Positions 18,001 to 21,000 of a stretch of DNA of 39,698 bases are shown here, one piece after another (the first letter of the stretch is position 1; the number at the start of each line of letters is the position of its first letter). The stretch is from the IMG/VR virus record IMGVR_UViG_2522572021_000013. One strand, given 5' to 3'. Position numbers: made by a program. Source of the DNA: a virus. Taxonomy: Duplodnaviria; Heunggongvirae; Uroviricota; Caudoviricetes.

Positions 18001-21000
18001 CGAAAATGCGGTGCCTGTCCGCTGGCTGATATCCATCAGCACTTTCTGTGATGACGCAAATTCATCCGATGACTGCGACGCCTGTTTCAGACGGGCATTC
18101 ACGGAGCTCCATTCATCCGCCAGCGAAATCAGGTGTCCGGTGGCAAAGGCACCGGCAAATGCGCCAGCCACTCCGACAGCAGAACCGCGAATTTCCGTCA
18201 ACTGGCTGTTCAGTTCTGCCAGGGCGCGTCGCTGCTCCCGGGCTGCCGCAGCAGCCTGACGTCCGCCATTCTGCAGGGTCCGGTAATATTCACTGCCCAT
18301 ACGGGACGCCCGCTGGATCTCCGACTGGAATGACTGTGAATTTGCCGAAATTTTGATAATCAGTTCACGTAACGTCGCCATTCACCTTTCTCCGGGCGCA
18401 AAAAAACCGCCTCAGCGATTCTCATCATTTATGACATTGCTGCAAGGCTCAGCGCGTCTTCCAGCGCCGCAAACGGATCCACCTCCGGCTTATCCTCATC
18501 CTCGCCCCAGCAGAGCATGGCGTCCTTCAGTGCAACATTCATCCCCTGTGCCCCGAAAACCGCTTTCACGATCTGCGCATTACGGATATCCCCGCGCTCA
18601 TCACCCAGCGGGGATACCCTGTCGAACTCCATCCACATCATCGCCTCGCTCGCACTCAGGCTGTGCCGCAGTTCGGATAAGGTGCGCCCCAGACGGAGCG
18701 CAAGTCGCATCAGAAAGCGAATTTCCGGGCGGGCTACTTTTTTCTGGCCGACTCTGCATCAGCGATCAGTTCCAGTGCCTGACGCAGCAACCGGGCATGT
18801 ACCGGACCATAGACGGCCAGCACCTGCTCACGGTCGTCCGGAGTGAACACCCGTTGCAGGTCAGTATCACACAGGACATCGCAGAACAGCGTCACATCCG
18901 CTTCCAGGTTACGGCGGGTTTTCGCCACCACCGACAGGGTATCGTCATCCTCTCCATCACCATTGAGCACTTCCTGCCACAGATACCAGGCCTCTGCCGA
19001 AGGCTCCCGCAGCACCACGCTGACATTTCTCCATTCCGGCACCTTCACCGTTTTATGACGGAACCCCGACAGTCTGGCCAGCGCCAGTGTTTTCAGATCT
19101 TTTGCCATAAGCCTTATCCGCCCGCACCATTAACCGTTACCGTACACGCATCAGAGGTAATGCTCTGCGGCTGTTCTGCAGAATCCATTACCATGCAGGT
19201 ATAAGCCCCCTTATCACCTGACTGCGCATTGGCTTTACTGAAAGTGTCAGTAGTCTGTCCCTCGACCGGCTGACCATCCTTCTTCCAGGCGTATTTATAA
19301 GGCGGCGTTCCCCCGTTGACACTGACTGACATTGTCAGCAGCGCACCGGTATTCACGGTAAGTGTCTTCTCCGGATTTTTCACAAACGCCAGCGGTACCA
19401 CATAGGACACCGGTTTACCCTTCAGGCGAAGTGAAAACGTTGCAGCCACCACGCCGTTGGTACCGGATGACCAGGTGTGCTGACGCACTTCCGCCAGGAA
19501 CTTAAAGCCCTTACCGGACGGAAACTGCACCTTAAACGCATACACCGTGTCATTGTCATAGGCATCACGCAGGGCGTTCTGGGCCTGATTCAGATAAAAA
19601 TTACCCGACATGGAAATCTCGGACGACGCCCCCAGACCGTTGATGTTCTCCTGCTCTGTGGAGCAGAGCGTGGTCACATCAATATCCTGTTTCTGCCCGG
19701 CGGTGAACTGGACTTCCTTGATGGCGCAGTCCAGGCGCAGATATTCCGCCTTATCCATAGTTTCAGCAGTCGCCGGGGCAGATGAAATCATCACCTGCGT
19801 CAGCTGTGAGCGTTCATACAAAGCAGACATTCTGCCTCCTGATAATAAAAAACCCGCACGCGGCGGGGTATGGGTTCTGTTGAAAAAATTACACCGTGAC
19901 CTGAAATTCCAGGGTTGCACGGTAACAGCGGTTTTCCGGAATATAGTCCTGCATTTCACTGACGGATCCCGGGGCCAGCAGCATTATGGCTTCACGGGCG
20001 TCCTGACGTATCTGACGCGCCTGCGTCACAGTCCCGGCATAAACGTCTATCTGCACCGACACTGAGGACTCCGCCTGCCCGCCCATCACGTCCGCCGACA
20101 CCGATGAAATCAGGCTGAAAACCACCCACGGAAGCGCCACCGACGGCCTGCCATCCAGCAGGGGGACCACATACGGGTACACCTGCCCGCCGGCAAGATG
20201 CGCCAGATAAGGATACAAATCCGCCTCCGTCATCGTCTCAGTACCTCATCAATGGCCCGGTTCATCCGCGCAATCGCCACCTGAGCTGCCTGTTCACTGC
20301 GCACATCAAACGCCGGGCGCACAAACGGGTGCGGTGGCATATTCACGGTCCCCATTTCCACAAACCGCCAGTAGAAAGCATTGCGCGGGTTATCCGCCTT
20401 CATGGTGTTATCGCTGTTACCGGTGTCCGGATTAACACCACGGATATGGACACCGGATTCCATCCCGCCATCGCGGGAGCGCCGGGAAAGGACCACCACA
20501 TTGCGGCGCAGTTTTCCCCTGCGTACCGGTGCCCGTGACACCACTTCTTCTTTCAGCACATTCGCACCCGCACGGGTTGCCTCACGCAGCACCCGGTTAT
20601 TTTCCGCACCACTCAGAAGCTGCAAATCGCGGCTGATGTCCTCCAGCCCCGAAAAATCCAGCAGGGTTTCGATCATTTTTCCCCTCCCAGCCGACAGAGA
20701 ATTTCCAGACGCCCGCCGGTCGCATCCGGCACGGGCAGCCCGACAACGTTCAGGATCCGGTCACGCCATGGACCACTCAGCACATGAAGTCGTGACGCTG
20801 CCGTGATTTCCCGGCCGGACTGACCGCGCACCCAGATGCGGATTTCCGCCTGCGCCATTTCCGCACCGGACTGCATCCGCTCCCGGCTGCTCCTGCCACG
20901 GATATCCGCATGAATTTTCCCGCATGACACCCATTCTTCCGTCATTTCTCCGGCAGCATTACGGGTTAACACCGGCTTCAGAACACTTATCATCTGTGTC

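Follow-up and report, generated by a model that had tools for sequence, protein, structure and literature searches.

The gap between the genes for a gp11-like tail terminator protein and the major tail protein in the DNA studied here carries a GC hairpin followed by a U-tract. This element is probably a conserved Rho-independent terminator of the late transcript that stops RNA polymerase lacking the Q modification and is mostly read through during lytic growth. The DNA (hereafter the window) is the whole 39,698-nucleotide stretch of IMG/VR record IMGVR_UViG_2522572021_000013 and represents an E. coli lambdoid prophage of the BP-4795/Stx type. By comparing homologous junctions, we showed that a predicted GC hairpin with a U-tract, on the sense strand and with compensatory changes in its stem, recurs across HK97-like tail modules, and that its spacing from the stop codon upstream and from the ribosome-binding site (RBS) downstream is fixed. 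In the GenBank records of HK97, HK542, and mEp234, the homologous site is annotated as a (putative) rho-independent terminator, the HK97 feature being NC_002167 6692..6719, between genes 11 and 12. Judged by its sequence, the element is the orthologue of this annotated HK97-type terminator, and its kind is already known. The discovery value is correspondingly small, as the element is such an orthologue, and of all bacterial transcription signals its class is the most common. The puzzle lies elsewhere, in a terminator that has been kept across genera, with fixed geometry, before the genes for abundant proteins in an operon whose polymerase is terminator-resistant.

Position and structure of the hairpin

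The initial annotation placed a weak hairpin, with a 5-bp GC stem and six U residues on the minus strand, between a tail terminator-like gene and the major tail gene V, just upstream of the strong AGGAGG RBS of the latter, and our analysis bore out this description. The upstream gene (19889..20233, minus strand) encodes a 114-aa gp11-like tail terminator/tail completion protein that matches Pfam PF11367 and is 48% identical to HK97 gp11 over 113 aa. The downstream gene (19114..19830, minus strand) encodes the major tail (tube) protein, 238 aa from the ATG at 19830, with a C-terminal Ig domain; both the tail tube and the Ig domain were matched in Pfam, and the alignment starts at residue 8.

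On the minus strand, the TAA stop codon of the gp11-like gene (19891..19889) is followed by a 21-nt spacer (19868..19888) that is G-poor and C/A-rich and in the window also T-rich, with a T-tract of varying length in close relatives and indels of 7-9 nt. The hairpin (19853..19867) then begins, with a 5′ arm CCCGC (19867..19863), a loop CGCGT (19862..19858), and a 3′ arm GCGGG (19857..19853), and a U6 tract (T6 in the DNA; 19847..19852) abuts its stem. The remaining stretch (19828..19846) consists of the A/U-rich linker ATTATC (AUUAUC in the RNA), the Shine-Dalgarno (SD) sequence AGGAGG (19840..19835), the spacer CAGA, and the ATG (19830..19828) of the major tail gene. The hairpin is supported by the sequence, by a consensus terminator scan of the window that also picked up the site, by its fold energy, and by the homologous hairpins. 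With five G/C pairs and a 5-nt loop, it has an energy of -7.5 to -8.5 kcal/mol, among the weakest of its family, so that the label “weak” was fair. It is the minimum-energy fold when the U-tract is counted as held in the RNA:DNA hybrid. It belongs to the same strand as all of the late genes, and the T-run is present on one side only.

On comparative grounds, the element indicates that the major tail gene truly begins at ATG 19830: the N-terminus MSALYE.. is kept across the family, and the gap upstream of it has indels that break the reading frame. This has value for annotation, as the major tail gene is extended across the hairpin in several database records, such as those for BP-4795 ORF64 (281 aa) and the tail gene of 689R5.

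The hairpin gap, ~10 kb into the late operon and at a gene-module boundary, is the only sizeable untranslated gap in the neck-tail gene block; the remaining neck-block junctions are all 4-nt overlaps of the kind typical of coupled translation, and the gap that follows the tail-tube gene is only 5 nt long and has no hairpin. A scan of the minus strand near the gap and in the 3′ end of the gp11-like gene found no promoter-like site; the Q gene and pR′ lie outside the window.

We compared the window with shuffled sequences. A loose terminator scan returned 19 sites versus 12.5 ± 3.7 in shuffles and thus discriminates poorly, and the 86-nt context of the element folds no better than shuffles (z = -0.46). 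Under a strict definition (five contiguous G/C pairs, a loop of 3-8 nt, and T6 within 0-1 nt), the window holds three sites, all on the late-operon strand, versus a mean of 0.02 in 200 dinucleotide shuffles, a 150-fold excess over chance.

Conservation across HK97-like tail modules

A GC hairpin with an abutting T-run was found in 25 of 25 distinct homologous junctions, in which gp11 identity ranges from 34 to 100% and which include those of HK97, Salmonella, Klebsiella, Yersinia, Pantoea, Proteus, and Halomonas. This diversity was drawn from a genome collection and annotated phages; matches from an IMG/VR scan were near-identical copies only. The sole junction examined that lacked the hairpin was that of a Moraxella phage with 28% gp11 identity. 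Hairpin energies in the family run from -7 to -16 kcal/mol, and all 25 relatives have T-runs of 4-9 residues located 0-1 nt from the stem. The distance from the start of the T-run to the SD sequence is 9-15 nt, mostly 11-13 nt, and the hairpin always begins at least 13 nt past the stop codon. The sequence upstream of the hairpin is not conserved across the family, and over 23 junctions the spacer is 6.6% G, 37% C, and 34% A. Such a distance and such a G-poor spacer are as expected if folding must avoid the ribosome and competing pairings. In one relative, L094, two copies of the terminator flank a moron.

In a covariation test, with counts taken from a trimmed alignment together with a stem-anchored count, 88.5% of cells were paired, and there were 19 double-change cells versus 7.3 ± 2.4 in shuffles. 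The covariation score was 0.295 versus 0.176 in shuffles and was reached by none of 500, and slid registers scored at most 0.158; the same outcome would be expected from a terminator or from any other conserved hairpin. Three stem pairs have changes on both sides, and the compensatory changes seen are C-G to A-U, G-C to A-U, and C-G to G-C. Some stem pairs are G·U wobbles, for which the complementary strand would have A·C mismatches, and this places the fold on the sense RNA. No consensus structure emerged when MAFFT and RNAalifold were applied to entire intergenic regions, the short stems being out of register. The comparative evidence, together with the HK97, HK542, and mEp234 annotations, agrees with the initial description of an intrinsic-terminator-type signal on the late-operon strand.

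Probable termination and read-through, and other readings

The lambdoid late operon is transcribed by a Q-modified, terminator-resistant polymerase (PMC7547250), and little termination is therefore expected in lytic growth. We infer that termination takes place at the element in vivo. Polymerase without the Q modification, arriving through stray transcription or read-through in the lysogen or from inserted moron promoters, would release its transcript at the U-run (19852..19847), and the tail genes would be kept silent. During lytic growth, Q-modified polymerase would mostly read through, with at most a modest step-down in mRNA from the head/neck to the tail genes. In the read-through RNA, the hairpin would lie ~12 nt upstream of the SD sequence, bordering the ribosome-binding region on its 5′ side, and the U/A-rich tract would provide a leader free of structure, from which ribosomes could initiate de novo at AGGAGG. 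High tail-tube output would then come from the strong, uncoupled RBS and not from the terminator.

The initial annotation had gone further and proposed that the hairpin could be a partial terminator or attenuator that sets the stoichiometry of the abundant tail tube protein. This role is unsupported and runs in the wrong direction for an abundant protein encoded downstream: a terminator upstream of V would only lower V mRNA relative to that of the low-copy neck genes, whereas an abundant protein requires the reverse. The uncoupled AGGAGG RBS accounts better for the high output of V. A regulated attenuator was likewise rejected, as we found no conserved antiterminator, an alternative structure in which the 5′ arm would be sequestered. 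The sole alternative fold, AGAACCC/GGGUUUU, appears in the minimum-energy structure of a longer context, takes the same 3′ arm and the U-tract, and is not conserved; as long as the RNA:DNA hybrid holds the U's that it needs, its formation is blocked. We found no site-specific transcript mapping in the literature for HK97-like late operons or EHEC prophage tail regions; Term-seq data for E. coli O157 Sakai are in GEO under GSE143631 (cited in PMC7547250).

The window contains a second, near-identical cassette (26088..26129, minus strand), identified by the scan and a gap listing, upstream of the protease-major capsid fusion gene. It reads GAACCGC-tgcg-GCGGTTT, a T-run, ATTTTC, AGGAGG, CTGAT, and GTG. 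The 27-nt motif GCGGKTTTTTTATTWTCAGGAGGCWGA, which spans the 3′ arm, the U-run, AUUWUC, and AGGAGG, occurs exactly twice in the window, before the capsid and the tail-tube genes, and in none of 100 shuffles. A weaker third instance, read by eye, lies in the T-to-tape-measure gap (18382..18428, minus strand) and consists of TCGC-tgag-GCGG and T7, followed by GGAG and ATG. The same arrangement as in the capsid-gene cassette, built on a different stem, is present in Pseudomonas phage PAJU2.

The near-identical capsid-gene cassette and the tightly fixed SD distance form a counterpoint to termination. Given these two features, the hairpin and U-tract could be selected for a post-transcriptional role at the RBS. 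The weakness of the window hairpin and the absence of the Q gene and pR′ from the window also weigh against a terminator. More broadly, it is conceivable, although we lean against it, that hairpin, U-run, A/U linker, and AGGAGG make up a reusable high-expression cassette for capsid and tail tube that is selected post-transcriptionally and not for termination; its functions may include RBS insulation, S1 recruitment, and/or 5′-end stabilization after processing. If true, this would explain why a terminator-like signal stands upstream, not downstream, of the abundant genes in an antiterminated operon.

One alternative, which we hold to be unlikely but deserving of some weight, is that the hairpin is an mRNA stability or processing element that acts after transcription and shapes mRNA levels without terminating polymerase, either as a 3′ barrier guarding the head/neck mRNA after cleavage in the A/U linker or as a 5′ stem-loop stabilizing a processed tail-tube mRNA. 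The expected read-through by Q-modified polymerase, which leaves a terminator little lytic work, is consistent with this idea, as is the A/U-rich single-stranded linker 3′ of the hairpin. So, too, is the distribution of hairpins around genes for abundant proteins: in HK97, hairpins are annotated downstream of gene 5 and to either side of gene 12, and the capsid gene of the window has the cassette before it and a strong hairpin with no U-run just past its stop codon. However, a pure stabilizer needs no stem-abutting U-run, yet every one of the 25 junctions has one; the tail-tube gene of the window, with its 5-nt gap, is not followed by a hairpin; and we know of no processing sites at the gp11/tail-tube junction, which also counts against a stabilizing role.

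U-rich tracts can serve as S1-binding enhancers of translation, and the element might be a translation module in which the hairpin shields the RBS from upstream coding RNA, the U-rich tract is such an enhancer, and termination is incidental. Ribosomes could then initiate de novo at a very high rate, independently of the low-copy gene upstream. The narrow range of distances from T-run to SD sequence, the near-identical 27-nt block before both the capsid and the tail-tube genes, the same design in PAJU2, and the 4-nt overlaps at the other neck-block junctions all speak for this reading. We nevertheless regard it as quite improbable, as the U-run is always at the stem base, in the manner of a terminator, and the upstream copy in L094 (L094a) retains its T-run even though no RBS follows for about 150 nt.

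EHEC prophage late regions encode multicopy Hfq-bound sRNAs (PMC13502914), and the hairpin might form the 3′ terminus of a regulatory sRNA that is either derived from the gp11 3′ UTR or made from its own promoter, comparable to these sRNAs or to Salmonella IsrD. Subthreshold Rfam matches to isrD and isrK both stop precisely at the U-run, and the isrD match begins at the stop codon and has UUUCAACAGAA in common with the site. The scores, however, were 22.6 bits versus a gathering threshold of 37 for isrD (RF01388) and 20.7 versus 50 for isrK (RF01394), so that no family reached threshold in the Rfam search at the site, and IsrD has its own promoter at an unrelated Salmonella locus (IsrD paper). 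The promoter scan of the nearby minus strand was negative, and the segment upstream of the hairpin is unconserved. We treated the resemblance as terminator-driven or due to chance, and we think an sRNA very unlikely here. HnrS (EcOnc10-12), a multicopy prophage sRNA placed among the late genes, was also considered and rejected: coordinates from the Tree et al. supplement, compared with Sakai regions, put the Sakai copies between the genes for the Rz endopeptidase and terS, where they run antisense to the late operon, and not at the tail junction; the window's own copy, recognized by homology to the Sakai segment, is at about 29886-30053 on the plus strand. A chance hairpin without function, which the loose scan and the unremarkable fold of the 86-nt context would allow, is refuted by the strict-pattern excess and by covarying conservation across genera and has a negligible probability.

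Comparison with known systems

The predicted late-transcript terminator can be set beside several known elements. Internal attenuators or partial terminators occur beside highly expressed genes, as in E. coli rplL-rpoB and with T7 T-phi, after the capsid gene, and in SPP1 stem-loops bound the late gene clusters. As in these systems, the element is a hairpin with a U-tract in a polycistronic unit, where it can step the mRNA level between blocks. They follow an abundant gene or precede a low-abundance one, whereas the window element precedes an abundant gene, and so the simple stoichiometry rationale does not apply. With isrD and HnrS, the likeness is to short RNAs that end in an intrinsic terminator on horizontally acquired or prophage DNA; isrD also has a weak sequence resemblance to the element, but one below the Rfam threshold.

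Like the lambdoid tR′, the element would be an intrinsic terminator on the late transcript that is expected to stop only unmodified polymerase (PMC7547250). tR′, however, is directly downstream of pR′ and serves as a regulatory switch, whereas the window element is predicted and lies ~10 kb in. In Tn916, a terminator similarly blocks premature or leaky expression of element genes during quiescence and is read through under antitermination (PMC11658703). Tn916 is a different element with different antitermination machinery, and the analogy is one of logic only.

The closest counterpart is the HK97 gene 11/12 terminator, itself putative like the window element. The window stem is shorter and weaker (5 bp and -7.5 kcal/mol, versus -15.5 kcal/mol in HK97), its loop is 5 nt, and the second terminator that follows the tail gene in HK97 is absent from the window. 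In both, however, the hairpin sits between the genes for a gp11-type tail terminator and the major tail subunit, the core stem (AACCCGCC/GGCGGGTT in HK97, CCCGC/GCGGG in the window) shares a CCGC/GCGG core, the T-run is at the stem, and the SD sequence follows ~12 nt after the start of the T-run.

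The hairpin and its setting

As a lambdoid prophage of the BP-4795/Stx-converting type, the window carries a typical late operon, which runs on the − strand in the order Rz, terS, terL, protease-capsid fusion, portal, gp6-like, head completion, gp10-like and gp11-like, then the gap that holds the element, then major tail, G, T, tape measure, M, L, K, I, J and lom. All other junctions of the neck block are 4-nt overlaps or measure at most 10 nt, and the 58-nt gap with the hairpin is its sole real non-coding gap. On the − strand, the stop codon TAA (19891..19889) of the 114-aa upstream gene is followed by a 21-nt spacer (TTTTTTCAACAGAACCCATAC), a stem-loop (CCCGC 19867..19863, loop CGCGT, GCGGG 19857..19853), T6 directly 3′ of the stem (19852..19847), ATTATC, AGGAGG (19840..19835), CAGA, and the start codon of V, a 238-aa gene (ATG 19830). 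The upstream product, a homologue of HK97 gp11 (48% identity), matches Pfam PF11367 (tail completion/tail terminator), and the downstream product has Pfam tail-tube family matches and a C-terminal Ig domain. The initial annotation had placed the stem, the U6 and the ribosome-binding site (RBS) correctly, and its description of the hairpin as weak was fair, the isolated fold having an energy of −7.5 to −8.5 kcal/mol. About 90 Stx1/Stx2 phage records match the 1.2-kb region around the element at 98-99% identity, and a prophage in E. coli O145:H28 RM12581/RM13514 matches it at 100%; of 5,426 complete E. coli genomes, 1,297 contain the module, in up to 8 copies each.

In some database records the major tail gene is annotated from a start upstream of the hairpin, with the frame reading through it, as in BP-4795 ORF64 (281 aa; locus L001, 6342-7187), in 689R5 and at the homologous locus L006 (1488-2243). 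The gap indels among close relatives (7, 8 and 9 nt), the Pfam alignments beginning at residue 8 of the short form and the N terminus MSALYE, kept across the family, support ATG 19830 as the real start and indicate, from sequence, that the gene begins at the ATG after the Shine-Dalgarno (SD) sequence. A second small − strand hairpin, GAGGCAGA-AUG-UCUGCUUU (19819-19840; −7.6 kcal/mol), would sequester part of the SD and hold the start codon in a 3-nt loop; HK97-type relatives share only part of it.

Elsewhere in the prophage, the J-like gene (9064-12593) appears as two overlapping ORFs (339 and 885 aa), a sign that it may be frameshifted and the prophage defective. Separating it from the I-like gene is a gap (12594-12782) with a possible 39-codon ORF, flanked by an orphan + strand terminator (12754-12770) and a − strand hairpin of 10 bp (12616-12593). 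Two adjoining − strand ORFs (21357-23941; 454 and 407 aa, 4-nt overlap) together cover the portal-family profile phrog_2271 (859 positions), the second, of 407 aa, carrying about four tandem ~47-aa repeats, IPVPRDGRDYDPEVLQQAVNDAVANIPVPADGKSITPDDVRPMLEQMVKEAVSH. The large conserved ORF phrog_143 (33166-36465; 634-aa profile) is in two parts, N-terminal 35815-36465 and C-terminal 33166-34365, and a transposase gene lies between them on the opposite strand (34916-35836), so that the gene is IS-disrupted. An IS3-family insertion sequence with two transposase ORFs (37835-39048, +) includes the programmed-frameshift pseudoknot of that family (38116-38232; Rfam ALIL, 120 bits).

Conservation of the structure

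A loose consensus terminator scan discriminated poorly (19 sites versus 12.5 ± 3.7 in shuffles), and the 86-nt context folded no better than shuffles (z = −0.46). Under a strict definition (five contiguous G/C Watson-Crick pairs, a loop of 3-8 and T6 within 0-1 nt), the window held three sites against a mean of 0.02 in 200 dinucleotide shuffles, all on the late-operon strand: the element, one after J and one after lom. This count is decisive against chance.

Homologous junctions drawn from annotated phages, IMG/VR and GTDB genomes gave 25 distinct intergenic sequences (gp11 identity, 34-100%), from hosts that include Escherichia, Salmonella, Cronobacter, Klebsiella, Enterobacter, Kluyvera, Yersinia, Rahnella, Pantoea, Kosakonia, Proteus and Halomonas. 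A G+C-rich hairpin (5-9 bp, −7 to −16 kcal/mol) whose stem is adjoined by a T-run was present in all 25; the one junction without it came from a Moraxella phage (28% gp11 identity, genes about 9 nt apart). The stem occurs as CCCGC/GCGGG (window), GACCGC/GCGGTC, CCGCC/GGCGG, CCACC/GGTGG and CCCGGC/GCCGGG, and the loops vary freely. On trimmed alignment A4 with an eight-pair stem, 88.5% of cells were paired (81.5 ± 1.4% in shuffles), 19 cells had both sides changed (7.3 ± 2.4) and the covariation score was 0.295 (0.176), values that none of 500 shuffles reached; the count is conservative because one homologous locus, L098, is out of register in this alignment. Both-side changes were seen in three stem pairs, and every slid register scored 0.158 or less. 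Several stem positions have G·U pairs; because these would read as A·C mismatches on the other strand, the fold is one of the sense RNA, not of the DNA or an antisense transcript. As judged from these alignments, the element is shown to be under selection as an RNA structure on the sense strand.

The hairpin always begins at least 13 nt from the stop codon, usually 16-22 nt, after a G-poor spacer (G 6.6%, C 37%, A 34%; 469 nt); this would fit a hairpin folding clear of the terminating ribosome and of rival pairings with its C-rich 5′ arm. The SD starts 9-15 nt past the first T of the run, mostly 11-13. Near-identical prophages differ by 7-9 nt in the length of the T-rich tract right after the gp11 stop codon (19868-19888 and loci L003-L005; TAATTTTTTC versus TGACTTTTTCTTTTTT(T)(T)C), and their stop codon is either TAA or TGA.

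Possible roles of the element

The element is real and conserved, carries, by its sequence, all the hallmarks of an intrinsic terminator, and is almost certainly an RNA element of that type. It may serve as an insulator against transcription that is not antiterminated, as a mild attenuator, as an RNA stabilizer or as an RBS module. In lambdoid late operons Q renders the transcribing polymerase terminator-resistant (PMC7547250), from which we infer that the element should act chiefly on polymerase without Q modification, that is, on stray or read-through transcription in the lysogen or from inserted genes. Termination would then keep the tail genes silent, and during lytic growth the terminator would mostly be bypassed. 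Two loci show the site behaving as a module boundary: in an Enterobacter prophage (L094, 1846-2700) a KilA-N moron-like ORF sits between two terminator copies, and at L086 (1843-3342) an IS66-family element inserted immediately 3′ of the T-run severs the tail gene from the operon.

RBS insulation or enhancement and mRNA stabilization are, taken jointly, possible but not probable as the role. Both accord with the placing, in these phages, of a terminator-like hairpin and U-run directly ahead of the strong RBSs that serve the most abundant virion proteins. The terL-to-capsid gap has a cassette almost identical to that of the tail gene, upstream of the protease-major capsid fusion gene (26129..26088, −; GAACCGC-tgcg-GCGGTTT, T-run, ATTTTC, AGGAGG, CTGAT, GTG); a 27-nt motif, GCGGKTTTTTTATTWTCAGGAGGCWGA, occurs in the window exactly twice, in the tail and capsid cassettes, and in none of 100 shuffles. 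A third, weaker copy precedes the tape-measure gene. However, the upstream copy in the Enterobacter prophage retains its T-run with the next RBS about 150 nt away, which argues for selection of the run as a terminator component and against a role as an RBS leader alone.

The initial annotation's suggestion of a partial terminator or attenuator that sets tail tube stoichiometry fits poorly, since a terminator ahead of V can only lower the level of V mRNA against that of the low-copy upstream neck genes, whereas the most abundant tail protein would call for the opposite. The uncoupled consensus AGGAGG site is the better explanation for high V output, and the terminator could at most contribute a head-to-tail step-down. 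A regulated antiterminator was rejected: the sole alternative fold of the longer RNA, the minimum-energy stem AGAACCC/GGGUUUU, is unconserved among relatives and requires the U-tract, which the RNA:DNA hybrid holds during termination, and with the U's withheld the terminator hairpin becomes the minimum-energy fold.

Rfam gave no family at the element; isrD (22.6 versus 37 bits) and isrK (20.7 versus 50 bits) matched below threshold, both ending at the U-run. We rejected isrD on its score and because IsrD is transcribed from a promoter of its own, in an unrelated Salmonella island. HnrS, a multicopy EHEC prophage small RNA (sRNA) (PMC13502914) and at first a plausible candidate, was likewise rejected at the element, since its Sakai coordinates place it between Rz and terS and antisense to the late operon. 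The window counterpart, 29886-30053 (+), also antisense to that operon, shares 94.6% identity with the Sakai Sp9 region containing EcOnc12/HnrS, an Hfq-dependent sRNA and hha repressor, so that the window probably has an hnrS copy between Rz and terS. A further sRNA match, to STnc100 (36597-36783, −; Rfam, 115 bits versus a threshold of 47), is followed near 36560 by a strong terminator, GGCTGCGCATGGCGCGGCC plus T8.

Counterparts in other phages

In Pseudomonas phage PAJU2, which shares 46% identity with the window in the protease-capsid protein, a cassette of the same layout has another stem (AGCCCGC-ctaga-GCGGGCT, T-rich tract, GGAG, ATG). Just after the window's capsid stop codon (24153), a strong palindromic − strand hairpin without a T-run, ACGGGAGGCG/CGCCTCCCGT (approximately 24115-24140), precedes a small ORF57-like frame, in a position comparable to that of the annotated terminator after HK97 gene 5.

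GenBank/RefSeq records carry the position homologous to the element as a regulatory feature, annotated “terminator, putative” in HK97 (NC_002167, 6692..6719) and “rho-independent terminator” in HK542 and mEp234. The element is therefore the orthologue of an already recognized putative terminator and is known in kind from HK97-like phages; HK97 itself has further annotated terminator features after its major head gene and after its major tail gene.
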